A stretch of 64,000 nt of DNA from NCBI GenBank assembly GCA_963822445.1, contig CAWGHO010000002.1, positions 2,016,001 to 2,080,000 on the forward strand. The letters are read 5' to 3'. This DNA comes from an uncultured Acidobacteriota bacterium (lineage in GTDB: Bacteria; Acidobacteriota; Thermoanaerobaculia; Gp7-AA8). The first letter of the stretch is position 1, and each line of letters opens with the position of its first letter. The notes under the pieces were generated by a model, which saw only the letters and a program-made list of their open reading frames with translations, had not been told where the DNA came from and searched no databases. Made by a program: the position numbers and the translations under genes. This document shows positions 12,166 to 64,000 of this stretch, piece by piece.

Positions 12166-12531
12166 ATGCCGACGCACATTCAACAGCCGTCCATCGTTCA
12201 GGCCGCCGGGAACAAGCCGAAGATCATCGAGGAGTACATCGGCCGAGTGAACTCGGGCACCGAAGGGGTGAGCGTGGCCCGCATGAAGAGTCCGAGCGGG
12301 TGGGTGGAGCCTGGCCAGACCCCGGAGTTCGACGAGTACACAGTCGTCCTCCGCGGCACGCTCCGGGTGACCAGTCAGGGCGGCGGCTCGATCGACGTCC
12401 AGGCCGGCCAGGGAGTCATCGCCCACGCCGGCGAATGGGTGCAGTACTCGACGCCCGGGCCGGAAGGGGCGGAGTACGTCGCCGTTTGCCTGCCCGCGTT
12501 TTCTCCCGGAACCGTGCACCGCGATGCGTAG
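12166..12531 (+). CDS. Cupin domain protein (EutQ-like)
   Basis: KIIEEYIGRVNS, PGQTPEFDEYTVVLRG, VCLPAFSP. Confidence 0.75.
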   Translation: MPTHIQQPSIVQAAGNKPKIIEEYIGRVNSGTEGVSVARMKSPSGWVEPGQTPEFDEYTVVLRGTLRVTSQGGGSIDVQAGQGVIAHAGEWVQYSTPGPEGAEYVAVCLPAFSPGTVHRDA

Positions 12532-12620
12532 TTGCTCGGTTGCTGAGTTGCTGAGTTGCTGGGTTGCTGAGCAAAGGCCCCCAGGAACCCAGCAACCCAG
12601 CAACCCAGGAACCCAGCAAC
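12531..12620. repeat. Inverted octamer tandem array
   Basis: Five GTTGCTGA-like units (12531-12570), a 10-nt loop, then five CCAGCAAC-like units (12581-12620). Confidence 0.92.
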
Positions 12621-12621
12621 C

Positions 12622-13545
12622 ATGAAACTCCTCGTCCTCTCTGAACACGACGTCAACGAGCTCCTCACCATGAGCGAGTGCATCGCCGTGATGGAGGACG
12701 CCCTCGCCGCGCTGGCCCGTGGGGAGGTTCACAACCCCTTGCGGCAGAAGGTCCACGCGGCCGGCGCTCCCGGCCTCCTCGGGTTGATGTCGGCCTGGCG
12801 GGGCGGTGAGCAGCCGTACTACGCGCTCAAGGAAGTGTGCGTGTTCCCCCAGAACCCAAAACGCGGCCTGGACACCCACCTCGGCGCGGTCATCCTTCAC
12901 AGCGGGGAGACCGGCGAGCCTCTGGCGATCGTCAACGCCGCGGCTGTGACCGCCATCCGCACGGCGGCCGTTTCCGCGGTTGCCACGAAGCTCCTCGCCC
13001 GTCCCGACGCGTCCGTTCTGGCGATTCTCGGCACCGGCGTCCAGGCGAAGAGTCACCGCGAGGCCATCCCGCTGGTCCGGCCGATCAGGGAGATCCGGAT
13101 GTGCGGTCGGGAGGGGAACGCCGAGGAGACCGTGCGTGGGGCCGATATCGTCGTGACCGCCACGAATTCGCGCGAGCCGGTGCTGCGCCGCGAATGGCTG
13201 AGCCCGGGCGTGCACATCAACGCAGTCGGGTCCAGTATTGCCGCCGCCCGCGAGCTCGACGGCGCTACGGTCGCGGCCGCTTCGCTCTTCGTCGACCGCC
13301 GCGAGTCCACAATCAATGAATCGGGCGATTACCTCTTCGCCGTCGTCGATGGCGCCATCAGCGGCCCCGACCACATCAAAGCCGAGCTCGGCGAGATTCT
13401 GACCGGTACCGCAACCGGCCGGAAATCAGATGACGAAATCACGCTGTTCAAGTCCCTCGGCCTGGCCATCGAAGATCTGGCGTCAGCCGCGTTTCTCTAC
13501 GAAAAAGCGCGGGCGGAGGGGCGGGGCGTTTGGGTGGACTTCTAA
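12622..13545 (+). CDS. Ornithine cyclodeaminase / mu-crystallin family protein
   Basis: TAIRTAAVSAVAT, ILGTGVQA, HINAVGS, TLFKSLGLAIEDL. Confidence 0.9.
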   Translation: MKLLVLSEHDVNELLTMSECIAVMEDALAALARGEVHNPLRQKVHAAGAPGLLGLMSAWRGGEQPYYALKEVCVFPQNPKRGLDTHLGAVILHSGETGEPLAIVNAAAVTAIRTAAVSAVATKLLARPDASVLAILGTGVQAKSHREAIPLVRPIREIRMCGREGNAEETVRGADIVVTATNSREPVLRREWLSPGVHINAVGSSIAAARELDGATVAAASLFVDRRESTINESGDYLFAVVDGAISGPDHIKAELGEILTGTATGRKSDDEITLFKSLGLAIEDLASAAFLYEKARAEGRGVWVDF

Positions 13546-13588
13546 GCGGAATAAGAGGTTAGCGCCTCAGGTTGAGCCAGTTCCGGAC

Positions 13589-13617
13589 TTGACAAAGCCG
13601 ACCCACGTGCCTAAAGT
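13589..13617 (+). promoter_or_regulatory. Sigma70-type promoter of the str operon
   Basis: TTGACA (13589-13594), 17-nt spacer, TAAAGT (13612-13617), 74 nt upstream of rpsL. Confidence 0.75.
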
Positions 13618-13691
13618 GCGCGGGTTTTCCCTTCCGGGAGCAGTCTTTTCGCTGTAGGTGTCTTCAGAGTAATCAGAAGGATAAGCAACGA

Positions 13692-14069
13692 ATGCCAACG
13701 ATCAACCAGCTTGTCGCGCGCGGCCGTGATGCCGTCAAGTACAAGACGAAGTCTCCGGCCCTGCAGTCCAGCCCGCAGAAGCGTGGCGTCTGCACCCGCG
13801 TGTACACCTCGACGCCCAAGAAGCCGAACTCGGCCCTCCGCAAGGTCGCCCGTGTGCGCCTGACCAACGGCGTCGAAGTGACCACCTACATCCCCGGCGT
13901 CGGCCACAACCTGCAGGAGCACTCGATCGTGCTCATTCGCGGTGGCCGTGTGAAGGACCTGCCGGGTGTTCGTTACCACGTCATCCGCGGAACGCTGGAC
14001 GCCGTCGGCGTCGCCAAGCGCAACCAGAGCCGCTCCAAGTACGGGGCGAAACGACCCAAGAAGGCGTAA
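13692..14069 (+). CDS. rpsL: 30S ribosomal protein S12
   Basis: [29 protein letters not shown]. Confidence 0.99.
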
Positions 14070-14074
14070 CCACG

Positions 14075-14545
14075 ATGCCGAGACGCAGAGAAGTTCCGAA
14101 ACGCGAGATCCTTCCGGATCCGGTTTACAACAGCCAGCTCATCACCAAGTTCATCAACTCGCTGATGTCCGACGGGAAGAAGTCCGTCGCCGAGCGCGTG
14201 TTCTACGGCGCGCTGAAGAAGGTCGAGGATCGCGCGAAAGACGATCCGCTCAAGGTCTTCAAGAAGGCGGTCGACAACGTCAAGCCGGCGCTCGAAGTGA
14301 AGAGCCGCCGCGTCGGTGGCTCGAACTACCAGGTGCCGATCGAGGTCCGTCCGACCCGCCGCACCGCTCTGGCCATCCGCTGGCTGATCAGCTATGCCGC
14401 CGCGCGCGGTGAGAAGACCATGCAGGACAAGCTCGCGGGCGAGATTCTCGACGCCGCGAACAACCGTGGCAACGCGATCAAGAAGCGCGAAGACACGCAC
14501 AAGATGGCGGAAGCCAACAAGGCATTCGCACACTATCGGTGGTAA
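14075..14545 (+). CDS. rpsG: 30S ribosomal protein S7
   Basis: [29 protein letters not shown]. Confidence 0.99.
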
Positions 14546-14792
14546 ACTCTCCGGCCCTTCGGGGTTGGATTTTACGGTCGGATGCCTTAATCCGGCCCCC
14601 AACATCTAGCAGCTTTCCGTAGCTCCGTCTCGACCGGATAACACAGAACAGGTTCTGCGGTTCCGGACCGAGCAACGGGAAACCTAAAACTCGACTGAAT
14701 CACGTGTGGCCTCAGGCCTCCGTGTCTGCCATTTGGAGGCAGGCTGGAAGCCCGCACCACACGGTGTCCGCGGTAGAAGAAGAACACTCAAA

Positions 14793-16884
<2,092 letters not shown>

Positions 16885-16931
16885 TCTCAGCGACTACACC
16901 AGTCGGATTAGAACAGGGAGGTTAGATTCAC

Positions 16932-18122
<1,191 letters not shown>

Positions 18123-18131
18123 CTCACACGA

Positions 18132-18168
18132 TGGGCGCCGGTCATACGCCGGCGCCCACTGTTCTTTG
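18132..18168 (+). terminator. Possible weak terminator or processing hairpin between tuf and rpsJ
   Basis: TGGGCGCCGG-7 nt-CCGGCGCCCA followed by CTGTTCTTTG. Confidence 0.45.
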
Positions 18169-18182
18169 AGGAAAACGACATC

Positions 18183-18500
18183 ATGATGAACGAAAAGATC
18201 CGCATCCGACTCAAGGCTTACGACTACCGCGTGCTCGACCAGTCGACGTCCGAAATCGTCGACACGGCCAAGCGCACGGGGGCCAAGGTGGCGGGACCGA
18301 TCCCCCTGCCGACGCAGATCTCCAAGTACACGGTTCTGCGCTCGCCGCACGTCGACAAGAAGTCGCGTGAGCAGTTCGAGATGCGGACCCACAAGCGGCT
18401 GCTCGACATTCTCGAGCCGACGACGCAGACGGTCGACGCGCTCATGAAGCTCGAGCTCCCGGCCGGCGTCGACGTCGAGATCAAGGCGTTCGGCAAATAG
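18183..18500 (+). CDS. rpsJ: 30S ribosomal protein S10
   Basis: [23 protein letters not shown]. Confidence 0.99.
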
Positions 18501-18546
18501 ACCACATGAACCGGAGCACTCCGGTTCCAAGTGAAAGAACAGACAA

Positions 18547-19189
18547 ATGGCAATCGAAGGAATCATTGGCAAGAAGGTCGGAATGACCCAGGTGTTCGCC
18601 GCGGACGGAGCACTCGTCCCGGTCACCGTCATCCAGGCCGGACCGTGCCTCGTCGTCCAGAAGAAGACGTCCGAGAAGGACGGCTACGACGCCGTGCAGA
18701 TCGGGCTGGTCGAGAAGGTCTCGAACCGCCGCATCACTTCGGCGATGCGCGGCCATTTCGAGAAGGCCGGCGTCCAGCCGCTGCGCACGCTCGCCGAAGT
18801 CGACGTACTCGGGCGACGTCAACATCGGCGACCGGGTCCAGGCCGACCTCTTCAAGGAAGGCGATGCGATCGACGTGGTCGGTCAGTCCAAAGGCAAGGG
18901 TTACCAGGGCGTGGTCAAGCGCCACGGGTTCGCGGGTGGTCGTGAGTCGCACGGCTCGATGTTCCACCGCGCTCCCGGCTCGATCGGCGCGTCGGCGTTT
19001 CCGTCGCGCGTCATGAAGGGCATGCGCATGGCCGGCCGGATGGGCGGCGATCAGGTCACGGTCAAGAACCTCCGCGTGGCGAAGGTCGATGCCGAGAACA
19101 ACCTGCTCTACGTCCGCGGCGCAGTCCCGGGCGGCCGCAACGGACTCGTCTTCGTACGGTTCTCCAAGAACGGGAAGCGGGGCGAATAA
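18547..19189 (+). CDS. rplC: 50S ribosomal protein L3, apparent +1 frameshift at about 18800
   Basis: [10 protein letters not shown] in one frame, [15 protein letters not shown]...GAVPG in the next; span 643 nt = 3n+1. Confidence 0.95.
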
Positions 19190-19191
19190 CC

Positions 19192-20104: not shown

Positions 20105-20134
20105 TCGCACCGTAGCCGATAAGAAAGAAAAACT

Positions 20135-20959
<825 letters not shown>

Positions 20960-21251: not shown

Positions 21252-21260
21252 GCGGAGAAC

Positions 21261-21656: not shown

Positions 21657-21668
21657 CGGAGGCTACTC

Positions 21669-30794: not shown

Positions 30795-30890
30795 TTTTTA
30801 GTCGTTAGTCGTTAGTGATTAGTCGTTAGTAGTCGGAAACGGTGATGTCCTCGGTTTTACTAACGACTAACCACTAACGACTAATCACTA
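30792..30890. repeat. Inverted heptamer tandem array
   Basis: (TAGTCGT)n at 30799-30830 and (ACTAACG)n at 30859-30890 are reverse complements at 29/32. Confidence 0.92.
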
Positions 30891-40612: not shown

Positions 40613-40879
40613 CTACCGCGCCGCTTCGCGTCTCTTGTGATGAACGGTGATCGCGTATCCGAGGAGGGCGTTGATGACCATCGCGCCGTTCGTCACGGCG
40701 AAGACCCAGTTCCTCACCAGCAGGCTGTAGATGGTGAAGCCGACCGATGCGGCCATCTGTCCAACAAAGAGCCATCGCGAAACACCCGCGCTCGACTTCT
40801 CCCGCCACTGCTTCGCGACCTGATGGCCGAGGGTGACGATGAGGATGAGGGACGCGGCCCAGCCGATGGCGTCTGTCAT
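40613..40879 (-). CDS. PQ-loop / SemiSWEET-like 3-TM protein
   Basis: IGWAAS...QVAKQWREKSSAGVS...YSLL...VFAVTN; the PQ dipeptide is replaced by HQ. Confidence 0.7.
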   Translation of the reverse strand: MTDAIGWAASLILIVTLGHQVAKQWREKSSAGVSRWLFVGQMAASVGFTIYSLLVRNWVFAVTNGAMVINALLGYAITVHHKRREAAR

Positions 40880-40880: not shown

Positions 40881-40957
40881 GGTGGTAGGCGGTATGCGGT
40901 AGGCGGTAGGCGGTGGAACGAGCGCGAGGTCTCCCGCCTACCGCCTACTGCCTACTA
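40881..40957. repeat. Inverted heptamer tandem array
   Basis: (GGTAGGC)x4 at 40884-40911, a spacer, then (CCGCCTA)x3 at 40934-40954. Confidence 0.9.
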
Positions 40958-41404
40958 ATTCGGCATATACGGTCCCCGCTCCATCCGCGAGCGGATCTCG
41001 CTTTCCGTGGGCGGGCAGGGCAGCGGGTCTTCGGGGGGCGGGACGACGTAGGCGCATTCGCGGACGACTTCCGCCATCGTGTCGATTTCCAGCGGTTTGT
41101 TCAGCACCGCGGAGACGAGTGAGGGGTCGAGGAATGCGTCGTTCTTCGGATCGCGAACGGCCATGATGAACGAGGTCGAATCGGGGCGGTGTTCGCGGAA
41201 GGTGGTGATGAAGCGCAGGCCGTCGTCGTCGGGCAGATCGATGTCGACGATGATCAGCGCGTAGTCGCAGCTGCTTACTTTCTGGAGCGCGGCGTCGGCG
41301 GTCTTCACGGTGTCGACGACGAGCGGCTGATGGCGGAGGATCGTGAAGAGCAGAACGCGCAACGCTTCGTTGTGCTCGACGATCAAGACTCTCGGCTCTG
41401 GCAT
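40955..41404 (-). CDS. Single-domain response regulator, atypical receiver
   Basis: RVLIVEHN, IIVDIDLPDDDG, LNKPL. Confidence 0.75.
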   Translation of the reverse strand: MPEPRVLIVEHNEALRVLLFTILRHQPLVVDTVKTADAALQKVSSCDYALIIVDIDLPDDDGLRFITTFREHRPDSTSFIMAVRDPKNDAFLDPSLVSAVLNKPLEIDTMAEVVRECAYVVPPPEDPLPCPPTESEIRSRMERGPYMPN

Positions 41405-51160: not shown

Positions 51161-51678
51161 ACCGCACCGTCGCCATCATCGGATTGATTCTCGCCGCCGC
51201 GCTGGTCGGCGTACTGTTCGTCGGACTGGGCAAGGATCCGTCGAAGATCCGCTCGCCGCGCATCGGCAAGCCCGCGCCGTCGTTTGCGCTGCGCGAAGTC
51301 GGCACGGGACAGACCGTCGATCTGGCGGCGTTCAAAGGCAAGCCGGTGGTCATCAACTTCTGGGCGACCTGGTGTGGACCTTGTTGGGAAGAGCATCCCG
51401 TGCTCGTCGCGAATGCGCGGAGACTCCAGCCGAACGTGCAGTTCCTCGGCGTGGTGTTCGACGACACCGAGCAGAAGATTCTCAGCTTCCTCCAGCAGCG
51501 CGGCTCGGGGTATCCAACCCTCGTCGATGAAAAAGGCAAGACCGCGATTGCCTATGGCGTCGGCGGCGTGCCGGAGACGTTCTTCCTCGACGCGAACGGC
51601 GTCATCGTGGCGAAGTTCAACGGCCCCATGTCGACCGATGACCTGCAGGAAAATCTGCAAAAGGCGTATCGCCAGTGA
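51157..51678 (+). CDS. ccmG: Thiol-disulfide oxidoreductase CcmG/DsbE
   Basis: NFWATWCGPC, GVPETFF, N-terminal anchor. Confidence 0.88.
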   Translation: MNRTVAIIGLILAAALVGVLFVGLGKDPSKIRSPRIGKPAPSFALREVGTGQTVDLAAFKGKPVVINFWATWCGPCWEEHPVLVANARRLQPNVQFLGVVFDDTEQKILSFLQQRGSGYPTLVDEKGKTAIAYGVGGVPETFFLDANGVIVAKFNGPMSTDDLQENLQKAYRQ

Positions 51679-52160
51679 TCGCGATTCTTCTGCTTCTTCT
51701 TCAGCTGAAAGTGCCCGATGCCGCGCAGTTCGTCGGCGCTCCGCAAGGCGCTCCGATCGCCGGCGCGCGACTCGACGAGCGGACGAACGACGTTTCCGCC
51801 CTGCTGCGCTGCCCGGTCTGCCAGGGCATGGCCGTCGCTGACTCGAAGGCGGAAATGGCCGTGAACATGAAGGCCCAGGTCCGCGAGCTCCTCGAGCGCG
51901 GCTACACCGAAGAACAGATCCTCAAATACTTCGAGCTCTCCTACGGCCAGTTCGTGCTGCTCGAGCCGAAGTTCGAAGGCTTCACCTCGCTGGTCTGGCT
52001 CCTGCCCGTCATCGCCCTCGCAATCGGCGCGGCAGTCGTGTTCTTCAAACTGCGCAAACTCGAGAAGCCCCACCCCGTAACCCCGCAACCCCGTAACCCC
52101 GAAACCGAAGATCCCTATCTCACCCGCGTCCGCGATCTCGTCGGCAAAGGAAAACCATGA
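51675..52160 (+). CDS. ccmH: Cytochrome c biogenesis protein CcmH/CycL
   Basis: LRCPVCQG, YGQFVLLEP, one TM helix. Confidence 0.9.
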   Translation: MIAILLLLLQLKVPDAAQFVGAPQGAPIAGARLDERTNDVSALLRCPVCQGMAVADSKAEMAVNMKAQVRELLERGYTEEQILKYFELSYGQFVLLEPKFEGFTSLVWLLPVIALAIGAAVVFFKLRKLEKPHPVTPQPRNPETEDPYLTRVRDLVGKGKP

Positions 52161-53407: not shown

Positions 53408-53424
53408 CGTACACTCCGCCAACA

Positions 53425-53498
53425 GCCTCGGGGTGGCCATTGCGGCCTGAGATCACACCCGCGGAACCTGACCCGGTTCGGACCGGCGTAGGGAAGGC
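53425..53498 (+). ncRNA. TPP (THI-box) riboswitch
   Basis: GGGGTG...CTGAGA-TCACACCC...GAACCTGA-CCCGGT-TCGG-ACCGGCGTAGGGAA; P1 is GCCT/AGGC. Confidence 0.9.
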
Positions 53499-53500
53499 AG

Positions 53501-55531
53501 ATGACGGACATACTCTTTTTTCTTCTCGCACTCACTCTCGACGACACCCAACAACTTCCAACCGATCCCCGCTTTGCCGAGACGATGGTCGTCTCCGCGA
53601 TCCGCGCGGATGACGAGACCCCGGTCACGAAGAGCGACCTCGATCGCCAGGAGCTCGAAGAGCGCTATCACGGCCAGGACGTGCCGCTGCTCCTGCGCGA
53701 CACTCCTTCGATCAACGCCTACATCGAGTCGGGCGTTGGCGGCGCGGGCTACTCGTACATCAGTCTGCGCGGCATCGGCTCGTCGCGCATCAACTTCACG
53801 CTCGATGGCGTTCCGCTCGCTGATTCCGAGGATATGGCCACGTATTTCGCGGACTTCCCGGATCTTGCGCGCTCGCTGGAGAGCATTCAGATCCAGCGCG
53901 GCGTGGGGACGTCGACCGTCGGCTCCGCGTCATACGGCGGCTCGGTGAACATGGAGAGCATCGACCTCGCCCAGGATTCCGCGGTCGACGCGACGCTCGG
54001 AGCGGGCTCGTTCGGAAACCGGCAGGCCAGCGTCGGCTATCACTCCGGCGTGCTGCCCGGCGACTTCTCGCTCTACACGCGGCTCTCGTATCTCGAGAGC
54101 GACGGCTTCCGCGACAACTCCGGCATGCGCCAGCGCAACCTCTTCTTCAGCGGTGCGAAGCAGCTCGGCGACGCGCAGCAGCTCAAGCTCACCGGCTTTT
54201 CCGGTCACGAGCGGCAGCAACTCTCGTTCTACGCGACCGATGCCGACACGCTGAAGAACGACCTGCGCTCCAATCCGTTGCGCGGCGATGAGAAGGACAG
54301 CTTCGGCTACGACCTGGCCCAGTTGCAGTACATCCGCGCCATCGATTCACGCTCGGACATGACCGCGTCGGCCTACTACCAGCGCGGTTACGGCTGGTAC
54401 CGGCTGTTCGACTTCGGAAGTGACGTTCTGCGCGAGTACGGCCTCGATGGAACGCTCGTCGGCGGCATGCTCACCTACTCACACACAAACGGGGCGATGA
54501 CCATCAACAGCGGTTTGCATGTGAACCGCTTCAAGCGCGATCACACCCGCGACGATCTTTCGCTCGACGTTCGCGACTATGCGAATTACGGCGTGAAAGG
54601 GGAGGCCAACGCCTTCGCCAAGGTGAGCTGGGATCGCGAGCGCCTGCATCTCTACGGCGACGCCCAGGTCCGCTACGCTGATTTCGAATACCACGGCGAC
54701 GTGGACGTCGCGCCGATCTCCTGGACATTCTTCAATCCCAAGATCGGCGCTCGCTACACGCTCACGCCGGCGTCGACGGTGTACGGATCGTTCGGTCTGA
54801 CCACGCGCGAGCCGGCCCGCAATGACTTCTTCCACGGCGACGACAATCCCGCCGTCGCGTACGACCCTCGCGCGGTGAAGCCGGAGCGGGTGTACGACCT
54901 CGAGCTGGGCTGGAACTATCGTGCGGCGAACGTCGGACTCGCGGCGAATCTTTACGCGATGGAGTTCCGCAACGAGATCGCCGCTACCGGCGAGCTGTCG
55001 GACATCGGTTTGCCGCTGCGCCGCAACGTCGATCGCAGTTTCCGCCGCGGCCTCGAGCTGGAAGCGGATTGGCGCGTCGTGCCTTCGCTCCGCCTGCGCA
55101 CGAGTGCGAATCTCAGCCGCAATCAGATCGACGAATGGACGCAGTTCTACGACACCGGATCGATCACCTACCGCGACGTGGAGCCGCTGCTCACCCCGAG
55201 CGTGATCGTCAGCCAGTCACTCGAATACCGCCCCCTCACCGCCCTCACTCTGGGCGCAACCGGGCGGTGGGTAGGGGAGTCGTATCTCGACAACACCAAC
55301 CATCCCGATCTGACCACGCCGTCGTTCTTCACCGTCGACGCGACCGCCGCTTACGCGCTGAGCGATCGCGTCCGGTTCACCCTGCAGATCAACAACGCCC
55401 TGAACAACGACCTCATCTATCCGAGCGGCTACAGCTACCTCTACCTCGACAACGGCGCCGCGGCGGGCATCCCGTATTACTACCCGCAGGCGACGCGGAA
55501 CGCGGTGGTGTTGGTGGATCTGGACTTTTGA
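53501..55531 (+). CDS. TonB-dependent receptor, probably for thiamine
   Basis: TonB box ETMVVSA, plug motifs SLRG, LDGVPL and IQIQRG, C-terminal Phe; directly behind the TPP riboswitch. Confidence 0.85.
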   Translation: MTDILFFLLALTLDDTQQLPTDPRFAETMVVSAIRADDETPVTKSDLDRQELEERYHGQDVPLLLRDTPSINAYIESGVGGAGYSYISLRGIGSSRINFTLDGVPLADSEDMATYFADFPDLARSLESIQIQRGVGTSTVGSASYGGSVNMESIDLAQDSAVDATLGAGSFGNRQASVGYHSGVLPGDFSLYTRLSYLESDGFRDNSGMRQRNLFFSGAKQLGDAQQLKLTGFSGHERQQLSFYATDADTLKNDLRSNPLRGDEKDSFGYDLAQLQYIRAIDSRSDMTASAYYQRGYGWYRLFDFGSDVLREYGLDGTLVGGMLTYSHTNGAMTINSGLHVNRFKRDHTRDDLSLDVRDYANYGVKGEANAFAKVSWDRERLHLYGDAQVRYADFEYHGDVDVAPISWTFFNPKIGARYTLTPASTVYGSFGLTTREPARNDFFHGDDNPAVAYDPRAVKPERVYDLELGWNYRAANVGLAANLYAMEFRNEIAATGELSDIGLPLRRNVDRSFRRGLELEADWRVVPSLRLRTSANLSRNQIDEWTQFYDTGSITYRDVEPLLTPSVIVSQSLEYRPLTALTLGATGRWVGESYLDNTNHPDLTTPSFFTVDATAAYALSDRVRFTLQINNALNNDLIYPSGYSYLYLDNGAAAGIPYYYPQATRNAVVLVDLDF

Positions 55532-57025: not shown

Positions 57026-57414
57026 TTCGTCTGGCGCCCCGCAACCTCGAGCCGAAGCTCGCTCATTCCGGTCCGGAGCATCGCCCGAACCGTTTCTTCC
57101 GGCAGAGAATACACGCGAGCGAGGTCGGCCACGGACATCCCGCCGTAGAACGCGGCCTCGACGAGCTGCCGTGGAGCCGGTCTCATCCCGGATGGTTCTA
57201 CGGACGGCGCGGTCGACCGGTCGTATCGGGTCAGCGCTTTCTCGCGCGTCAGGCGCACCAACTCGGCCAGTTCGGCCGGCACTGAGGCCGAGGTGAAGAT
57301 CTCCTCGAGAACCGCTGCCGCTGCCGTTTCGTCGCCGGTGATGCGGAGCGCCAGTGCAAAAAGCCGCGGCGCGTGCGCATCGTACAGAGCGATGATGTCG
57401 GAGGAAGATGACAC
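57022..57414 (-). CDS. Short, degenerate ECF sigma factor
   Basis: LYDAHAPRLFALALRITGD (region 2) and AFYGGMSVADLA...PEETVRAMLRTGM (region 4). GTG 57414 inferred; ATGA overlap with the cupin gene. Confidence 0.65.
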   Translation of the reverse strand: MSSSSDIIALYDAHAPRLFALALRITGDETAAAAVLEEIFTSASVPAELAELVRLTREKALTRYDRSTAPSVEPSGMRPAPRQLVEAAFYGGMSVADLARVYSLPEETVRAMLRTGMSELRLEVAGRQTK

Positions 57415-57434
57415 GGGAGCCCCAAGTTTAGCCG

Positions 57435-57470
57435 ACCTGACAACCTGATAACCTGACAACCCGACAACCA
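57435..57470. repeat. Solo octamer tandem array
   Basis: ACCTGACA ACCTGATA ACCTGACA ACCCGACA ACCA directly before ATG 57473. Confidence 0.85.
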
Positions 57471-57472
57471 AA

Positions 57473-58009
57473 ATGAACTGGCTCCTCAAGAACTTCCTCC
57501 GCGGCCTGGTCATCGTCGTCCCGATCGCGCTCACCGTCTATCTGCTCTTCCAGGCCTTTCTCGCGCTCGATCAGATCCTCAAGCTGCGCTATCCCGGTCT
57601 CGGTGTCGCCGTCCTGCTCCTGGCCACGATCGCCATCGGTGCGCTGACGTCGAACTTCGTCGGACGGCGGGTCTTCGGGCTCACCGAGATGATGTTCACC
57701 AAGGCGCCGATCGTCAGGATCATCTACGCGGCCATCAAGGATCTGCTGGAAGCCTTCGTCGGGAACAAGCGCCGCTTCGATCGGCCGGTCACGGTGATGG
57801 TCGGCGAGCACGCGAAGATGCTCGGGTTCATCACCCAGGAAGAGCTCGGTGCGCTCGGGTCGGCGGGAGAGATCGCGGTGTACGTCCCCTTCTCCTACAC
57901 CTGGGACGGTTGCCTGATGATCGTGCCGCGGGAACGCGTCCAGCCGCTCTCCGTGGACAGCGCGAGCGTGCTCGCGTTCGCTGTCTCCGGCGGCGTCTCA
58001 AAGGTCTGA
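57473..58009 (+). CDS. DUF502 family membrane protein
   Basis: FLRGLVIVVPIALT, PIVRIIYAAIKD, VYVP, VSGG. Confidence 0.82.
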   Translation: MNWLLKNFLRGLVIVVPIALTVYLLFQAFLALDQILKLRYPGLGVAVLLLATIAIGALTSNFVGRRVFGLTEMMFTKAPIVRIIYAAIKDLLEAFVGNKRRFDRPVTVMVGEHAKMLGFITQEELGALGSAGEIAVYVPFSYTWDGCLMIVPRERVQPLSVDSASVLAFAVSGGVSKV

Positions 58010-58116
58010 GCCGGTACCACCGGCGGCGTTGATGTTTGAGATCGCTTGGACGCGCATTCAGGACGCGCGTGATGAGGGCGGAGCGACTGACGCAGCGGGC
58101 CGTGCCCGCCAACGTC

Positions 58117-58144
58117 TTGCATCACAAAATGTTTCGCATATGAT
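58117..58144 (+). promoter_or_regulatory. Candidate promoter of the act operon
   Basis: TTGCAT, 16-nt spacer, TATGAT in an AT-rich patch upstream of actA. Confidence 0.5.
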
Positions 58145-58212
58145 GCGCGACGCCGCGCGAGCCCGCGCGTGGTGTCGTACGGCAGTTGCCTGCCCCCTCG
58201 CATTGAACTCTC

Positions 58213-58860
58213 ATGGCTCAAATCTTCGACCGTAGTGCGAACACACTGTCTCGCGTGACGATCTTCGGCGCGATCTTCATTGCCGGGTTCGTCTTGTGGG
58301 TCATCGGAGGCATCGTCCGTTCGCCCTACTTCACCAATCAGGGCATCGCCCGGGAGCAGCCCGTTCCCTTCAGCCATCAGCATCACGTCGGCGGCCTGGG
58401 CATCGATTGCCGCTACTGCCACACCAGCGTCGAGACCTCCAACTTCGCCGGCATCCCGCCCACCTCCACCTGCATGAACTGCCACTCGCAGATCTGGACC
58501 AACGCGGAGATGCTCGAGCCCATCCGGGCCAGCTTCCGGAACAACCGCCCCATTCGCTGGAGCCGGGTCCATCGTCTGCCGGACTTCGTCCAGTTCAACC
58601 ACAGCATTCACGTGCACAAAGGCATCGGCTGCGCGACCTGCCACGGGCGCATCGACAGGATGAACCTCGTGTCCCAGGCCTCGCCCCTGACCATGGAGTG
58701 GTGCCTGAACTGCCATCGCAATCCCGAGAAGTACATCAGGCCGCGTGAAGAGGTCTTCAACATGGCCTACGTCCCGAAGAATCAGGCTGCACTCGGCCCG
58801 AAGCTCGTCCAGGAGTACGGGGTGAAGAAGATGACGAGCTGTTCGGTGTGCCACTACTGA
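58213..58860 (+). CDS. actA: Alternative complex III pentaheme cytochrome c
   Basis: Five CxxCH motifs (CRYCH, CMNCH, CATCH, CLNCH, CSVCH), QPVPFSH. Confidence 0.92.
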   Translation: MAQIFDRSANTLSRVTIFGAIFIAGFVLWVIGGIVRSPYFTNQGIAREQPVPFSHQHHVGGLGIDCRYCHTSVETSNFAGIPPTSTCMNCHSQIWTNAEMLEPIRASFRNNRPIRWSRVHRLPDFVQFNHSIHVHKGIGCATCHGRIDRMNLVSQASPLTMEWCLNCHRNPEKYIRPREEVFNMAYVPKNQAALGPKLVQEYGVKKMTSCSVCHY

Positions 58861-58861
58861 C

Positions 58862-61800
58862 ATGAGCGATCCCAAGAATCTCGATTTCACCGAGTTCCGC
58901 CAGCGCGTCGGCGATCTTCGCGGCCGCGAGTTCTGGCGGAGCCTCGAGGAGCTCTCGCGCAGCGATGCGTTCGACGAGTTCTTCGAACAGGAGTTCCCGC
59001 AGCAGGCGTTGCCGCTGCAGAAGGGCGTCGACCGCCGCAACTTCATGAAGCTGATGGGCGCCTCGGTGGCGATGGCCGGCCTCGCGGCCTGCCGCCAGCC
59101 GAACGAGACGATCATCCCGTACGTCAATCAGCCCGAGAACCTGATCCCCGGCAAGCCGCTGTTCTTCGCCAGCGCCATGACCCTCGGCGGCGTCGCGACG
59201 GGCGTGCTCGTCGAGAGTCACATGCACCGCCCGACGAAGATCGAGGGCAATCCCGAGCATCCTTCCAGTCTCGGCGCCAGCGATTCCTTCATGCAGGCCT
59301 CGGTGCTCGGCCTCTACGATCCCGACCGCTCCCAGGTCGTGCGCAAGCTCGGTGACACCGCGACCTGGTCCGAATTCCTCGGCGCATTGCAGCCGGTACT
59401 CAACGCCGCGAAAACCAACGGCGCCGGATTGCGGATCCTCACCCAGACCATCACCTCACCGACCCTCGGCGCGCAAATCCAGGCGCTGCTCGCGCAGTAC
59501 CCGGGCATGAAGTGGCATCAGTGGGAAGCCGTGAGCCGCGACAACGTGCGCGCCGGCGCCCGCATGGCCTTCGGCAGCGACGCCAGCGTGCATTACGACT
59601 TCACCAAAGCCAACGTCGTCGTCTCCCTCGGCTCCGATTTCCTCGGCGAAGGCCCGGGACATCTCCGTTATGCACGCGATTTCATGTCGCGCCGCAAGGT
59701 CCGCCACGGCAAGACCCAGTCGATCAACCGCCTTTACGCAATTGAAGCCAGCGTGACCCAGACCGGAACCGTTGCCGATCACCGCCTCGGCGTGAAGCCG
59801 TCGCAGATCGAAGAGCTCGCGCGGCAGTTGCTGGCGGGAAATTCGGGCAACGCCGTCCTGCAGGCCGCGATCAAGGATCTTCAGGCCAATCGCGGCGCGA
59901 GCATCGTCATTGCCGGCGACGAGCAACCCGCCGCCGTTCACGCGATCGCTCACGCGCTCAATTCGCAACTCGGAAACATCGGCACGACGGTGATGGTCAC
60001 CGACTCGATCGAAGTCGCGCCGGTCAATCAGCTCGATTCCCTGCGCCAGCTCGTTCGCGACATCAACGCCGGCGCCGTCAACGGCCTGATCATCCTCGGC
60101 GGCAATCCCGTCTTCGACGCGCCGAGCGACATGCATTTCGGCAAATTGCTCGACACCGTGCCGTTCCGCGCGCATCTCTCGCTCTATTACGACGAGACGT
60201 CGATGCGCTGCCAGTGGCACATCCCCGATGTTCACTATCTCGAGACCTGGGGCGACGCCCGCGCGCACGACGGCACGATCTCCATCATCCAGCCGCTGAT
60301 TGCCCCGCTCTACAACGGCCGCTCCGCGCACGAGGTCCTCGGCGCCCTGATCGGCGGCCTCGATCAAACGCCATATCAAACCGTGCGCAATTACTGGTTC
60401 AGCAAAGGCGCTACCGAAGACACGTGGCGCAAATGGCTCCACGACGGCTTCATCTCGGGTAGCGCACTGCCGGTTCGCGCAGCGTCGGCGGCGTTCAACC
60501 CCGCAACCCCGCAACCCAGTAACCCCGCAACCGGTATCGAACTGGAACTCCGCCACGATCCGACGATCTACGACGGCCGCTTCGCCAATAACGCCTGGCT
60601 CCAGGAGCTCCCCAAGCCGCACACGAAGATCACCTGGGACAACGCCCTGATCATCGGACCGCGGCTCTCCGAGAAAATCGGCTTCACGGCCGAAGAGCGC
60701 GATCCCCTCGTCAATGAGAAGCAGACGCGGTTCGCCGAAGTCACGTATCGCGGCGTGACCATGCGGCTGCCGGTATGGGTCCTTCCCGGCCAGCCCGACG
60801 ACGTGGCCACGATTTACTTCGGTTACGGCCGCACGCACTCGGGCGGAATCGGCAACGGCAAAGGCTTCAACACGTATCCGTTCCGCTACGCCGACGCACT
60901 GCATGGCGGCGGTGGCGCGAAGATCGTCATGTCCGACGCCGCGCCGCGGATCTATGGCATCGCCTGCACGCAGGAACATCAGTCCATCGATCCGAAGCTC
61001 GTCGGCGAGCGCGGATTAATTCGCGCGGCGACCTTCGAGGGCTACAAGCAGAATCCGAACTTCGCGAAAGACCCGCATCACGGCAGCGACGTCACCGGTC
61101 ACGGCGACGAGTCGATGTACGAGCCGTACGACTACAGCAAAGAGCACGCGTGGGCGATGGTCATTGACACGTCCGTGTGCACCGGCTGTAATGGCTGCGT
61201 TGTCGCCTGTCAGGCCGAGAACAACATCGCCGTCGTCGGCAAGGAAGAAGTAATCCGCGAGCGCGAGCTGCACTGGTTGCGCATCGACCGCTATTTCCGC
61301 GGCAATCCGGATAATCCCGAGGTTTATCACGAGCCGGTGCCTTGCATGCAGTGTGAGAACGCGCCGTGCGAGCCGGTTTGTCCCGTCGAAGCGACCTCCC
61401 ACAGCGCGGAAGGTCTGAACGACATGACCTACAACCGCTGCGTCGGCACGCGTTACTGCTCGAACAACTGCCCATACAAAGTGCGGCGTTTCAATTTCTT
61501 CGGATATTCCGATTACGACACGCCGGCATTGAAGCCGATGCGCAATCCCGACGTCACCGTGCGTACCCGCGGCGTAATGGAAAAGTGCACGTATTGCGTA
61601 CAGCGCATCCGCGCCGGACAGATCGAGGCGAAGAAGCAGGGTCGCCGCGTGAAAGATGGTGAAGTCGTGACGGCCTGTCAGCAGGCTTGCCCGACTGAGG
61701 CCATCGTGTTCGGGGACATGAACGATCCCAACAGCGCGGTTGCGCAACTCAAGGCGCAACCGACGCATTACGCGTTGCTCGAGGAACTGCAGACCCGTCC

Positions 61801-61903
61801 GCGGACGACGTATCTCGCGACGATCCGCAATCCGCATCCGGACCTCGATACGGCAAAGAAGGCCGATACCGGACACGAGGAGGGACCGATCGGTGGCCAC
61901 TAA
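58862..61903 (+). CDS. actB: Alternative complex III molybdopterin-oxidoreductase-like/Fe-S subunit
   Basis: FWRSLEEL, Tat motif RRNFMK, KIEGNPEHP, CTGCNGCVVAC, CMQCENAPCEPVCP, CVGTRYCSNNCPY. Confidence 0.93.
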   Translation: MSDPKNLDFTEFRQRVGDLRGREFWRSLEELSRSDAFDEFFEQEFPQQALPLQKGVDRRNFMKLMGASVAMAGLAACRQPNETIIPYVNQPENLIPGKPLFFASAMTLGGVATGVLVESHMHRPTKIEGNPEHPSSLGASDSFMQASVLGLYDPDRSQVVRKLGDTATWSEFLGALQPVLNAAKTNGAGLRILTQTITSPTLGAQIQALLAQYPGMKWHQWEAVSRDNVRAGARMAFGSDASVHYDFTKANVVVSLGSDFLGEGPGHLRYARDFMSRRKVRHGKTQSINRLYAIEASVTQTGTVADHRLGVKPSQIEELARQLLAGNSGNAVLQAAIKDLQANRGASIVIAGDEQPAAVHAIAHALNSQLGNIGTTVMVTDSIEVAPVNQLDSLRQLVRDINAGAVNGLIILGGNPVFDAPSDMHFGKLLDTVPFRAHLSLYYDETSMRCQWHIPDVHYLETWGDARAHDGTISIIQPLIAPLYNGRSAHEVLGALIGGLDQTPYQTVRNYWFSKGATEDTWRKWLHDGFISGSALPVRAASAAFNPATPQPSNPATGIELELRHDPTIYDGRFANNAWLQELPKPHTKITWDNALIIGPRLSEKIGFTAEERDPLVNEKQTRFAEVTYRGVTMRLPVWVLPGQPDDVATIYFGYGRTHSGGIGNGKGFNTYPFRYADALHGGGGAKIVMSDAAPRIYGIACTQEHQSIDPKLVGERGLIRAATFEGYKQNPNFAKDPHHGSDVTGHGDESMYEPYDYSKEHAWAMVIDTSVCTGCNGCVVACQAENNIAVVGKEEVIRERELHWLRIDRYFRGNPDNPEVYHEPVPCMQCENAPCEPVCPVEATSHSAEGLNDMTYNRCVGTRYCSNNCPYKVRRFNFFGYSDYDTPALKPMRNPDVTVRTRGVMEKCTYCVQRIRAGQIEAKKQGRRVKDGEVVTACQQACPTEAIVFGDMNDPNSAVAQLKAQPTHYALLEELQTRPRTTYLATIRNPHPDLDTAKKADTGHEEGPIGGH

Positions 61904-63326
61904 AGATCCCACCCCGGTCCACGAGATCCGCCCTGTAACGCAGGAAGTGCGGATTCCCGAGCGCTTCATCCCCACGCCGACCATCGAGCCGGGTCACTCG
62001 TTCTCCACGATCACCGATCACATCTCCACGATCGTCCTCAAGAAGCGCACGCCGATCGGCTGGTTCATCGGCTTCCTGATCGCCCTCGGCGGCGTCGGCC
62101 TCCTGACCGTGTCGATGGCCGTGCTCATCGGCAAAGGCATCGGCATCTGGGGCATCAACCATCCCGTCGGATGGGGCATGGACATCATCAACTTCGTCTG
62201 GTGGATCGGCATCGGCCACGCCGGCACGTTGATCTCCGCGATCCTACTGCTGCTGCGGCAGGAGTGGCGCACGTCCATCAACCGCTTCGCCGAGGCCATG
62301 ACCCTTTTCGCGGTCGCGTCGGCGGGCTTGTATCCCGCGCTGCACACCGGGCGTCCCTGGTACGACTACTGGCTGTTCCCTTATCCGAACACGATGGGTC
62401 TCTGGCCGCAGTTCAGAAGCCCGCTGATGTGGGACGTGTTCGCCGTCTCGACTTACGCGACCGTCTCCGCGCTGTTCTGGTATGTCGGCCTGATTCCCGA
62501 TCTCGCCACGCTGCGCGATCGCGCCACGAACATCTGGGTCAAGCGCGCATACGGCGCCTTCGCCCTAGGATGGCGCGGCTCCGCGAAGCACTGGCATCGC
62601 TATGAGCACGCGTACCTGCTGCTCGCAGGTCTTTCGACGCCGCTCGTGCTCTCCGTTCACACCATCGTTTCGTTCGACTTCGCAGTAGCGCAGTTGCCGG
62701 GATGGCACGCCACGTTCTTCCCGCCGTACTTCGTCGCCGGTGCTGTTTTTGCGGGGTTCGCAATGGTTCTCACGCTTGCGATTCCGGCGCGGAAATTCTT
62801 CAAGCTCGAAGACTTCATCACCATGCGTCATCTCGAGAACATGGGCAAGGTGATGCTCGCCACGGGAATGATCGTGGCCTATGCCTACGCAATGGAGTGG
62901 TTCTACGGCATTTACTCGGGCAATGTCTTCGAGACTTACATGCTCAAGAACCGGTCCACCGGTCCATACGCGAAGATGTACGTCGCGCTCTGGATCTGTA
63001 ATGGACTCGCGCCGCAGTTGATGTGGTTCAAGCGCTTCCGCACGTCACCGTTCTGGCTGTTCGTCGTGGCGATGTTCGTCAACGTCGGGATGTGGCTGGA
63101 GCGCTTCGTCATCATCCCGGCGTCACTGCATCGCGACTTCCTGCCGTCGTCGTGGGGCATGTACCACGGCACGGTGTGGGACTGGAGCTTCTACATCGGC
63201 TCGATCGGTCTGTTCTTCGCGCTGCTGTTCCTGTTCGTGAGGTTCCTGCCGATGATCTCCATCTTCGAGATGCGCACCCTGCTCCCCGAGGCGCAGGCGC
63301 ACGCTGATCATGAGGAGGCGCACTAG
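61893..63326 (+). CDS. actC: Alternative complex III NrfD-family quinol-binding subunit
   Basis: NFVWWIGIGHAGTLISA, RSPLMWDVFAV, GMWLERFVII. GTG start after GAGGAGG. Confidence 0.93.
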   Translation: MATKDPTPVHEIRPVTQEVRIPERFIPTPTIEPGHSFSTITDHISTIVLKKRTPIGWFIGFLIALGGVGLLTVSMAVLIGKGIGIWGINHPVGWGMDIINFVWWIGIGHAGTLISAILLLLRQEWRTSINRFAEAMTLFAVASAGLYPALHTGRPWYDYWLFPYPNTMGLWPQFRSPLMWDVFAVSTYATVSALFWYVGLIPDLATLRDRATNIWVKRAYGAFALGWRGSAKHWHRYEHAYLLLAGLSTPLVLSVHTIVSFDFAVAQLPGWHATFFPPYFVAGAVFAGFAMVLTLAIPARKFFKLEDFITMRHLENMGKVMLATGMIVAYAYAMEWFYGIYSGNVFETYMLKNRSTGPYAKMYVALWICNGLAPQLMWFKRFRTSPFWLFVVAMFVNVGMWLERFVIIPASLHRDFLPSSWGMYHGTVWDWSFYIGSIGLFFALLFLFVRFLPMISIFEMRTLLPEAQAHADHEEAH

Positions 63327-63329
63327 GCC

Positions 63330-63878
63330 ATGGCGATCGGGAAGATCAAACAGGGCCTCTACGGCGTGATCGCGGAGTTCAATGATCCGCAGACGCTGCT
63401 CGATGCCGCCAATGCCGTGCGCGAGAAGGGCTACACCGCGACGGATGCGTTCTCGCCGTTCCCGATTCATGGATTGGCCGAGGCGGTCGGATTTCACAAG
63501 TCGCGACTGTCGGCGATCGTTCTGACGATGGGCCTGGCCGGCGGCATCGGCGGCTTCTTCATGTGCTGGTACGCGAACGTGATCGCGTATCCGCTCAACA
63601 TCGGTGGCAAACCGTACAACTCCTGGCCGGCCTGGATTCCGATCGCCTTCGAATGCGCGATTCTGCTCGCCGCGTTCGGCGCGGTTTTCGGCATGCTGGC
63701 CCTCAATGGCCTGCCGATGCCGTATCACCCCGTATTCAACGTGCGCCGTTTCGACAGCGCCTCGCGCGACAAATTCTTCCTGGTCATCCAGACGCGCGAT
63801 CCGAAGTTCCGGCTGGATGAAGTTCGCCAGTTCCTGCAAAGCCTCGGGCCACGGGAGGTAACCGATGTTCCGTGGTGA
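63330..63878 (+). CDS. actD: Alternative complex III subunit (DUF3341)
   Basis: FSPFPIHG, YPLNIGGKP, PIAFE. Confidence 0.9.
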   Translation: MAIGKIKQGLYGVIAEFNDPQTLLDAANAVREKGYTATDAFSPFPIHGLAEAVGFHKSRLSAIVLTMGLAGGIGGFFMCWYANVIAYPLNIGGKPYNSWPAWIPIAFECAILLAAFGAVFGMLALNGLPMPYHPVFNVRRFDSASRDKFFLVIQTRDPKFRLDEVRQFLQSLGPREVTDVPW

Positions 63879-64000
63879 CGCGCTAGCGCGCGAATGCAGA
63901 ATGCAGAATGCAGAATGCAGAAGCACACTGCCGGCGCGCCGTTCTCCTTTTTGCATTTTGCATTTTGCATTTTGCATTTTGCTTCTCGTCGGCTTGGCCG
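63865..64000 (+). CDS. actE: Probable 5' end of ACIII lipoprotein cytochrome ActE (partial)
   Basis: GGAGG SD, ATG 63865, frame open to the window end: MFRGDALARECRMQNAECRSTLPARRSPFCILHFAFCILLLVGLA. Identity inferred from operon order only. Confidence 0.6.
   Translation, partial: MFRGDALARECRMQNAECRSTLPARRSPFCILHFAFCILLLVGLA
63892..63982. repeat. Inverted heptamer tandem array
   Basis: (GAATGCA)x4 at 63892-63919, a spacer, then (TTTTGCA)x4 plus TTTTGC at 63949-63982. Confidence 0.92.

Follow-up and report, generated by a model that had tools for sequence, protein, structure and literature searches.

Inverted pairs of short tandem repeats have been described in bacteria in two settings close to the one considered here, the intervening sequences (IVSs) of 23S ribosomal RNA (rRNA) genes and the heptamer pairs of Xanthomonas. 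Our subject is a population of hairpins built from inverted arrays of 7- and 8-nucleotide (nt) units in the genome of an uncultured soil bacterium of the Acidobacteriota (assembly GCA_963822445.1; 6.0 Mb in three contigs, C1-C3; 64.5% G+C; 94.7% complete). Four two-armed elements and three single arms of this kind lie in the stretch C2:2016001-2080000, which measures 64,000 nt, is hereafter called the window, and has its positions given without a contig name. We read the window hairpins as the gene-less and half members of a genome-wide population of insertion cassettes, the full form of which carries a gene of the PF05635 family. This reading, whose cutting and binding part is a proposal, is in our judgement somewhat better than an even bet.

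The first of these settings is the S23p-bearing IVS of 23S rRNA in Coxiella burnetii, Leptospira and others (PMC4990558; this and the other papers cited are represented by the parts of their text available to us). Its protein belongs to the same family, PF05635, as that of the full cassettes described below; as here, its ends are complementary, its stem measures ~28–30 bp and tandem heptamers lie in the stem region. In Coxiella, a 28-bp stem is cut by ribonuclease III (RNase III), and three tandem GACAGAT heptamers lie at the cleavage site (PMC4990558). The IVS is regarded as selfish and has a sporadic distribution, and the elements considered here are likewise. The two differ in location, since the IVS sits in helix 25/45 of 23S rRNA whereas our elements lie between or within protein-coding genes. 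Here, moreover, most copies are gene-less, the arms are regular arrays of five cores, a single genome contains ~12 families, and cleavage by RNase III would be expected only by analogy.

The second setting is the (GGGANTN)n arrays of Xanthomonas (Rehm et al. 2015, PMC4692102), which have mostly four units and form 70–75 convergent inverted pairs per genome. They are intergenic, mainly between co-directional open reading frames (ORFs), and transcribed; they lie at most 50 bp after a stop codon (sense strand) or before an ORF (antisense strand), and the positions of the unit are either conserved or variable. The authors read them as G-quadruplex formers and treat the GGGGA(C/T)T repeats of Nostoc alongside them; according to the paper they have no association with mobile elements, and its available text does not contain the name XCC0516. 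The array anatomy is nearly that found here, with mostly four units in convergent pairs close to the upstream stop. However, Xanthomonas has one unit family per genome with no gene linked to it in that text, whereas here there are many families, PF05635 genes stand inside the arms, and a third of the pairs cannot form quadruplexes.

Other systems share single features. REP/REPIN-RAYT systems (repetitive extragenic palindromes and their associated transposases) are likewise populations of short intergenic hairpins in which a gene-bearing ‘master’ shares its repeats with gene-less copies. Their gene encodes a Y1 transposase, whereas ours belongs to PF05635, the arms are tandem arrays, and the loops are unconserved except in one subfamily. 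Rickettsia palindromic elements are palindromic repeats tolerated in frame within protein-coding genes. They are akin to the in-frame arrays of the window in the CcmH gene and in ORF 58862–61903, although only single arms occur in those two genes and the sequence architecture differs. The short tandemly repeated repetitive (STRR) heptamers of cyanobacteria form similar dispersed arrays. An earlier reading of the window from its sequence alone (the sequence-only reading) had named STRR heptamers as the nearest analogue; the Xanthomonas (GGGANTN)n convergent pairs (PMC4692102) and the heptamer stem of the Coxiella 23S IVS (PMC4990558) are nearer, so far as those sources are available. The TAACTGA heptamers of marine Beggiatoaceae, cyanobacteria and Bacteroidetes (MacGregor 2015, PMC4679880) form dispersed, mostly intergenic arrays of 2–6 units that adjoin start codons and whose units bring a stop codon into every frame; they are suspected of spreading horizontally, by a mechanism given as not known. 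These are single direct arrays (one inverted case in 170) for which the available text reports no cargo gene, in contrast to the inverted pairs with PF05635 found here.

PF05635 genes between the arms

Six genes of the genome match PF05635 (23S_rRNA_IVP; S23p/Avd-like) above the cut-off, and all six lie between inverted 7- or 8-nt arrays. The six cassettes have the units AGTCGTT, AGGGACG, GTTACGGG-type, GAATGCA, GAAGGCA and AATTGAA, and the distance from arm to match is 9–54 nt. Five of these six units are also those of gene-less families, the three largest among them. A cassette consists of a 5' array of four G-rich 7- or 8-nt units plus 3 nt, a loop, and the complementary array on the 3' side, with the PF05635 gene in the loop of the full form. 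The window contains no PF05635 match, and its copies are gene-less.

The association extends beyond this genome. All 35 genomes of the genus carry PF05635, with 1–9 matches each, and strict arms enclose the gene at 22 of the 29 best loci outside our genome. Two of the remaining seven loci are cut by contig ends, four have at least one array that was rejected by the same-period rule, and one has none. Among named organisms of many phyla (Acidobacteriota, Planctomycetota, Bacteroidota, Proteobacteria, Clostridia, Chloroflexi, Gemmatimonadota and others), strict arms were found at 43 of the 76 loci for which both flanks were available, and most of the others have one array. The sequence-only reading had suggested that the window hairpins might be empty shells of cassettes carrying a small gene elsewhere, and had mentioned similar arrays around four-helix-bundle/IVP-like genes. 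Both suggestions are borne out by these counts (6/6 in this genome, 22/29 in the genus and 43/76 across phyla). A named Mesorhizobium genome repeats the pattern on a smaller scale, with its cassette unit AGTAGGGG present also in ~5 gene-less convergent pairs and in none of a reversed-pattern control. In the Mesorhizobium genomes of L138 and L141 (loci L162-L172), AGTAGGGG forms several convergent pairs that lack a gene and some very long arrays of more than 15 units.

The proportion of nonsynonymous differences (pN) in the PF05635 gene is 0.10–0.20, against 0.62–0.74 for synonymous ones (pS), as measured in 11 cassette pairs that are orthologous or close relatives; the protein is thus functional and its gene under purifying selection. 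The protein matches PDB 2GSC (XCC0516; five chains) with an E-value of 3.7e-25. XCC0516, the S23p of Xanthomonas, is described as a homopentameric toroid of four-helix bundles (PMC4990558), and PF05635 is related to Avd, a protein of diversity-generating retroelements (DGRs; PMC10053308). A DGR was rejected as an explanation of the six copies, because the genome has no match to PF00078 and all six are flanked on both sides by ordinary protein-coding ORFs. The gene has the same orientation as both neighbours at 20 loci and the opposite one at 5; these 25 loci are not independent events, because several are orthologous.

At one further site (L160, C1:1142500-1144100) two TAGTCGT arrays, one G-rich and one C-rich, stand 1028 nt apart with a 335-aa ORF exactly between them. 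The 1028-nt interior was rejected as a new cargo, being an ordinary ORF that is alpha/beta-hydrolase-like on reading of its sequence and holding no Rfam family. The site is probably two half-elements brought together by chance, the alternative being a cassette with a different cargo.

The sequence-only reading had put the hairpins forward as an undescribed system, which is too broad a claim: the Xanthomonas heptamer pairs and the Coxiella IVS heptamers are published partial precedents. IVS-like selfish cassettes and heptamer repeat pairs are known; PF05635 genes within tandem-repeat arms, accompanied by gene-less copies in many families, appear to be new. In the openly readable literature, to which subscription papers such as Lin 2006 and Mazel 1990 do not belong, nothing was found linking PF05635 genes to tandem-repeat arms, and gene-less hairpin populations in many families were not found described.

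Copy number and families

A first census of the whole genome with Tandem Repeats Finder (at least 3.5 copies, score at least 45) returned 244 arrays of period 7 and 260 of period 8, and at most 22 of any other period. Contig C1 holds 65 and 76 arrays of the two periods under these thresholds, against none after dinucleotide-preserving shuffling; with 141 real arrays to 0 shuffled, the arrays are far above chance. A second census, with overlaps merged and periods of 7–8, at least 3 copies and a score of at least 36 accepted, gave 665 arrays, which resolve into 251 strict inverted pairs and 163 single arrays. A strict inverted pair consists of neighbours separated by at most 150 nt whose units are reverse-complementary with at most 2 mismatches. 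Direct pairs numbered only two, under the stricter rule of the first census. Among the 161 single arrays that could be oriented, 74 have a decayed partner (a match of at least 16/21 to the reverse complement within ~120 nt) on the expected side and 2 have one on the wrong side; the true two-armed total is therefore ~300.

The units group into ~12 recurrent dispersed families, one 7–8-nt unit recurring at 10–70 unlinked sites, and the strict pairs are distributed among the named families as follows.

Family GTTACGGG: 68 strict pairs
Family TAGTCGT: 32 strict pairs
Family GAATGCA: 31 strict pairs
Family GGTAGGC: 26 strict pairs (heterogeneous bin)
Family AAGGCTCA: 25 strict pairs
Family GGTTGCTG: 15 strict pairs
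Family AGTCTCAA: 15 strict pairs
Family AGTGGGC: 12 strict pairs (heterogeneous bin)
Family GGTTGTCG: 11 strict pairs
Family GGATTGA: 10 strict pairs (heterogeneous bin)
Family AATTGAA: 6 strict pairs

From the window it had seemed that each locus has a unit of its own. That impression arose because the view was limited to 64 kb: the four window units belong to families of 15 (GGTTGCTG), 32 (TAGTCGT), 26 (GGTAGGC) and 31 (GAATGCA) pairs.

Arms and loops

Period-7 arrays peak at a length of 31 nt (30–32 nt in 171 of 318) and period-8 arrays at 35 nt (34–36 nt in 175 of 347). An arm is thus defined by a fixed unit count and not by a fixed length, four units plus 3 nt, that is, five short cores with four spacers; the 9- and 10-nt-unit arms that surround the PF05635 gene in relatives also have ~4 copies. 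Two outsized elements, C2:909829-910086 and C3:131956-132121, have 10–13.5 units per arm, nearly all others having ~4.4. Polarity is strict: G exceeds C in the 5' arm of 240 of the 251 pairs, and neighbouring arrays run from G-rich to C-rich 232 times and in the reverse order never. Across the pairs of the genome, the mean paired length is 28.5 bp, with 91% Watson-Crick pairs. Variation within a unit is limited to one or two positions, as in GTT[N]CG[R]G, TAGT[S][R]T and AGTC[K]CA[R], with the same spectrum in both arms. Invariance at the remaining positions exceeds 97% in the GTTACGGG family and is about 90% or more in the other homogeneous ones. Within these limits the arms are diverse, and the 68 5' arms of the GTTACGGG family show 65 distinct variant patterns.

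The same features bear on a reading in which no dedicated machinery exists, so that arrays grow by slippage, template switching at quasi-palindromes supplies the second arm, and families result from convergence and local duplication. Quasi-palindromes are known to mutate through template-switch correction. In many bacteria, besides, heptamer arrays outnumber every other kind of long simple repeat (Mrazek 2007 as cited in the available text of PMC4679880). Such a process, however, accounts poorly for the same unit at 10–70 unlinked sites, a sharply quantised copy number, strict polarity and the tie of the arrays to one protein family across phyla. These same four points bear out the view, already taken from the window, that the arrays are not products of simple slippage, and we consider a slippage origin very improbable.

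The loops are 3–66 nt long and match neither each other nor any other part of the genome, with the exception of one GGTTGCTG subfamily. In 9 of the 15 GGTTGCTG copies, for example at C1:1061903, C2:642109 and C2:1593942, there is a common loop of ~40 nt with a palindrome of its own (GCTCCGC...GCGGAGC). This subfamily has evidently been copied as whole elements, loop included, in the manner of a miniature inverted-repeat transposable element (MITE), and it is the only family for which the sequences make this clear. The sequence-only reading had held that the hairpins are not one MITE copied around; the shared loop of the nine GGTTGCTG copies runs counter to it.

Two origins of the loops were examined and rejected. 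Captured genomic DNA was ruled out, since only the GGTTGCTG subfamily finds matches, and only with itself. Older hairpins that later acquired arms were rejected because the self-complementarity of the loops resembles that of random intergenic pieces (mean z -0.24 against -0.45). A Shine-Dalgarno-like motif is enriched at the arm/loop junction (44 and 41 of 174, equal on both strands, against 15–17 in mid-loop); this arises because the stem extends 2 bp into the loop, and the enrichment is uninformative.

Composite hairpins, in which a GGTTGTCG pair sits flush (gaps of 0–7 nt) inside GTTACGGG arms to give stems of ~70 bp, occur at no fewer than four loci.

C2:571885-572031: composite hairpin
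C2:2334284-2334450: composite hairpin
C1:870523 onward: composite hairpin
C3:408479 onward: composite hairpin

They originated either by exact insertion into a loop or by the addition of new arms at the base of an older hairpin.

These forms invite comparison with elements of REP/REPIN or MITE type that depend on an unlinked transposase, such as a Y1 enzyme acting on DNA hairpins, and have the four-helix-bundle gene only as a frequent passenger. The hairpin geometry and the intergenic dispersal in families would suit that account, as would the subfamily with a conserved loop and the composite GGTTGTCG-inside-GTTACGGG elements, and the genome has four weak matches to Y1_Tnp (PF01797). None of the four Y1_Tnp loci is flanked by arrays, however, the loops are unique in all families but one, and no target-site duplication was found. 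All six PF05635 genes lie inside arms, and arms co-vary with the protein over 70 cassettes, which is unlike a random passenger; we think this account unlikely.

Turnover between species and covariation of arms and protein

The ribosomal-protein region infA-rpmJ-rpsM-rpsK was compared in 19 loci, from this genome and 18 relatives, one further locus being incomplete. The rpmJ/rpsM spacer is 16–22 nt long and empty in 13 of the 19; in the other 6, from this genome and five relatives, it is filled and 93–131 nt long, and at least four unrelated units occur among them. All three states that the sequence-only reading had predicted for this spacer (empty, filled and unit-swapped) are thus present. 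The infA/rpmJ spacer is empty here and filled in several congeners. The rpsM/rpsK spacer is also empty here, and four relatives share one orthologous element in it, with related loops and partly decayed arms. Judging from these spacers, cassettes come and go among congeneric species and are mobile on that time-scale. In L018 (relative G010), the rpsM/rpsK spacer holds an ordinary non-tandem palindrome of ~100 nt; as tandem-unit hairpins occupy this spacer in other species, such sites are shared with a second kind of hairpin element. Soil-metagenome contigs (at least 88% likeness, possibly from other species) carry the empty form of the rpmJ/rpsM spacer; in the soil metagenome and metatranscriptome runs, whose data are in the form of contigs, at most 48% of the sampled words were present, and the contigs from RNA libraries show only that empty spacers occur in relatives.

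Three unpublished genomes, G002, G024 and G032, supply one filled infA/rpmJ state, one of the four rpsM/rpsK copies, the only filled rpmJ/rpsM state outside the family, and two of the 29 gene loci, L062 and L072; no conclusion rests on them alone.

Gene-bearing cassettes at orthologous sites differ in their units. At one site, with flanks 71–92% identical, the unit is AGGTATG, AGGGATG, AGGAAAA/AGGTAAA, AGGTGAA or AGTGCTG, depending on the species; at a second, the TTCCTCGG unit occurs in an 8-, 9- or 10-nt form. At such sites the change of unit between species is always matched in both arms. Over 71 cassettes with 63 distinct units, the median complementarity is 0.94 between the arms of one cassette and 0.50 between foreign arms. 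Sameness of unit (at most one mismatch) rises with protein identity, from 1–3% below 60% identity to 12% at 60–70%, 36% at 70–80% and 67% above 80%. Within a clade, a short core (AGG, AGT or AGGCA) persists and the rest of the unit drifts. By these comparisons, arms and protein are inherited, and change, together. Synonymous sites are saturated and yet the arms pair at 94%, and we therefore infer that the arms are maintained or regenerated and are not neutral relics.

Placement relative to genes

Placement was counted on crude gene calls (4547 genes, with small genes missed). Only 21 of the 251 pairs lie inside a called gene. The 230 pairs with two flanking genes comprise 159 in co-directional, 45 in divergent and 26 in convergent spacers; the corresponding shares of all spacers are 64, 18 and 18%. 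In 126 of 211 cases the element starts at -3 to +10 nt of the upstream stop, and its end usually lies 4–40 nt ahead of the next start. Among single arrays, G-rich ones follow stops (39 against 26) and C-rich ones precede starts (45 against 11 G-rich); 43–44 of the 163 lie inside called genes.

Such stop-adjacent stems could be intrinsic terminators or plain hairpins that stabilise mRNA. Strong stems just past stop codons are what that would require, but a TTTT run occurs within 10 nt past the stem, on either strand, in only 10 of the 251 pairs. Convergent spacers, moreover, are not enriched (26/230, or 11%, against 18% of all spacers), and the elements lie mostly inside operons, as between rpmJ and rpsM; the idea is scarcely credible.

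The placement is compatible, too, with regulatory repeats selected by the host. The G-rich strand after the stop and the C-rich strand before starts recall Xanthomonas (available text of PMC4692102), four units would supply the four G-tracts of a quadruplex, GGG runs are present in some families (GTTACGGG, AGTGGGC, CAGCGGG), and regulator binding has been proposed for the TAACTGA arrays (available text of PMC4679880). However, 84 of the 251 pairs belong to families without GG in the unit (TAGTCGT 32, GAATGCA 31, AGTCTCAA 15, AATTGAA 6) and are built with four-unit arms like the rest, which means that quadruplexes cannot be what the arrays are for in general. Units also vary from species to species at one and the same spacer, which is empty in many congeners; this leaves no conserved regulatory role tied to a site, and the enclosed gene is left unexplained. 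A host-selected regulatory origin is in our view distinctly unlikely.

A proposed cycle and its difficulties

The insertion-cassette reading can be extended to a cycle. The element would be transcribed along with its host operon and, by analogy with the S23p-bearing IVSs of 23S rRNA, an RNA stem of ~30 bp would form and be cut by RNase III. If the flanking cistrons stay intact after the cut, insertion would be tolerated even in a ribosomal-protein operon. Five-core quantisation and a pentameric protein together suggest that the ring may bind a single-stranded arm, each subunit contacting one repeat core, which would explain why the five-core count is fixed when length is not, and why a conserved core is accompanied by a drifting spacer. 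Gene-less copies would be non-autonomous or relic members with the same arms as a gene-bearing copy, either resident or lost, much as REPINs relate to their RAYT.

Several observations weigh against this account. Seven of the ~12 families have no resident PF05635 copy, and their arms are as intact as the rest. We know of no catalytic activity for PF05635 proteins, and no transposase was found linked to the elements. The gene-less loops and the interiors of the six gene-bearing cassettes gave 23 short matches, against 16–37 in 20 random controls, so that derivation of the one from the other by internal deletion is unsupported. Target-site duplications were not found (for k=3, 1 observed against 3.6 by permutation), and the outer arm ends are fuzzy. 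In relatives, two insertions judged by eye retain a second copy of the stop codon 3' of the 3' arm, an observation limited to these two.

Within homogeneous families, the two arms of an element are independent draws: complementarity to the own partner is 0.875 against 0.884 to other elements in GTTACGGG, and the values in the other homogeneous families are 0.907 against 0.920 and 0.881 against 0.895. Oppositions of G:T versus A:C do not track transcription either (58:55 in ++ and 66:50 in -- contexts; Fisher p 0.43). With oppositions not linked to the strand and arms not covarying within the genome, there is no evidence of copy-by-copy selection on RNA pairing. Turnover is slow in Xanthomonas, where 83% of the arrays are common to two species (Rehm et al., PMC4692102, as far as its available text goes).

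The RNase III gene itself poses a further difficulty (TIGR02191; C3:961330-961919, L173/L174), as its match is split into two pieces and its reading spread over three frames. Relative to a congener, it has two inserted single bases, one within an A6 run, and rnc is intact in 31 of the 35 genus genomes. The frameshifted rnc is either an assembly error or a pseudogene; if it is real, the RNase III step could not run in this strain.

The independence of the arms bears on another mechanism, in which the arms are made anew at each insertion. To heal a DNA break, a short template would be copied over and over onto its two 3' ends, filler would join these, and the pentamer would count repeats and stop at five cores. 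Consistent with this, copies whose arms are nearly identical each have a loop and flanks of their own, the strict polarity is never reversed (0 pairs), the arm count is quantised and variation is confined to one or two unit positions. So, too, are the 65 variant patterns in 68 arms of one family, the statistical independence of the arms, the concerted change of units between species and the existence of half-elements. Yet no reverse transcriptase (PF00078) was found in the 94.7%-complete genome, no template locus was identified, and the 9 of 15 GGTTGCTG copies with their conserved ~40-nt loop were clearly copied whole. Slippage shuffling of unit variants could equally randomise the patterns of the arms, and the addition of 7–8-nt repeats has no known bacterial precedent. 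We rate arms made anew as doubtful, if foremost among the alternatives to the cassette reading. Were they real, a bacterial repeat-adding machine with telomerase-like logic would be the source of the unexplained heptamer arrays in many phyla.

If the insertion-cassette reading is true, three orphans are joined: the PF05635/S23p proteins, which have solved structures, no known function and a closest relative in the DGR accessory protein Avd; the rRNA intervening sequences, whose origin has been open since 1990; and the abundant heptamer and octamer arrays known from Xanthomonas, cyanobacteria, Beggiatoaceae and other groups, interpreted until now as forming quadruplexes or as sites for regulators. 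The model predicts one ring per arm through the five-fold core, RNase III cuts in the stems, and a need of gene-less copies for a matching gene-bearing copy. The present genome, with ~300 copies in ~12 families, is an unusually rich test bed, and the model is testable in the Mesorhizobium carriers, which are cultivable. In practical terms, the hairpins disrupt assemblies and gene calls, supply stop codons and in-frame peptide inserts, and are fast-evolving markers between congeneric species.

Elements of the window

Tandem Repeats Finder and direct reading placed the four two-armed elements and three single arms where the sequence-only reading had located them. The pairs carry no strand assignment.

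12529..12621: two-armed element, GGTTGCTG family; arms 12530-12571 and 12580-12621, period 8, 5.2 + 5.2 copies, 8-nt loop
30792..30890: two-armed element, TAGTCGT family; arms 30798-30830 and 30859-30890, period 7, 4.7 + 4.6 copies
40881..40957: two-armed element, GGTAGGC family; arms 40884-40914 and 40934-40955, period 7, 4.4 + 3.1 copies
63892..63982: two-armed element, GAATGCA family; arms 63892-63922 and 63949-63982, period 7, 4.4 + 4.9 copies
52072..52106, plus strand: single C-rich array, GTTACGGG family, reading ACCCCGTA, period 8, in the C-terminal tail of CcmH (ORF 51675-52160)
57435..57469, plus strand: single C-rich array, GGTTGTCG family, reading ACCTGACA, period 8, 3 nt short of the ATG of a DUF502 gene
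60496..60532, plus strand: single C-rich array, GTTACGGG family, period 8, within the 1013-aa ORF 58862-61903, between its domains

All four pairs fold as long hairpins, with RNA minimum free energies (MFEs) of -36.6 to -70.5 kcal/mol. Measured against 200 dinucleotide shuffles on both strands, z lies between -5.5 and -10.3 in seven of the eight strand-folds, the exception being the minus strand of 63892..63982 (z -2.3).

The first element starts inside the TAG stop (12529-31) of a cupin-domain gene and ends 0 nt from the ATG of an ornithine cyclodeaminase gene; its folds have MFEs of -61.6/-70.5 kcal/mol (z -9.4/-10.3). A variant unit in its 3' arm (12580-12621), CCCAGGAA, puts AGGA 9 nt upstream of the ornithine cyclodeaminase start, so that the arm itself may be the source of a ribosome-binding site for that gene. 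The second lies between rpmJ (L36) and rpsM (S13); its decayed first unit opens with the rpmJ TAG stop (30792-94), and its 28-nt loop is unique. The third, read on the minus strand, starts in the TAG stop (40955-57) of the response-regulator gene 40955-41404 and ends 4 nt ahead of the start of ORF 40613-40879. The fourth follows the TGA stop of an alternative-complex-III ActD gene at a distance of 13 nt, and the variant TTTTGCA in its 3' arm creates G:T oppositions on the plus strand. The sequence-only reading had tied the elements to TAG stops, which is accurate for three of the four window pairs; genome-wide, the link is only a weak trend, with TAG as the stop next to 37% of the stop-adjacent elements (34 of 92) and of 28% of all called genes.

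The three single arrays have 4.4–4.6 copies each, and 57435..57469 has no clear partner arm. Coding sequence holds the other two, in the CcmH gene and in ORF 58862-61903, whose Fer4 domains lead us to read it as ActB-like, of alternative complex III. Both in-gene arrays (35–37 nt) are translated as Pro/Thr/Asn-rich inserts in a tail or linker, that of 52072-52106 as a Pro/Thr-rich stretch.

No Rfam family was found at any of the seven sites. The sole Rfam match of the window is a thiamine pyrophosphate (TPP) riboswitch (RF00059, 62.5 bits) at 53419-53511 on the plus strand, just upstream of ORF 53501-55531.

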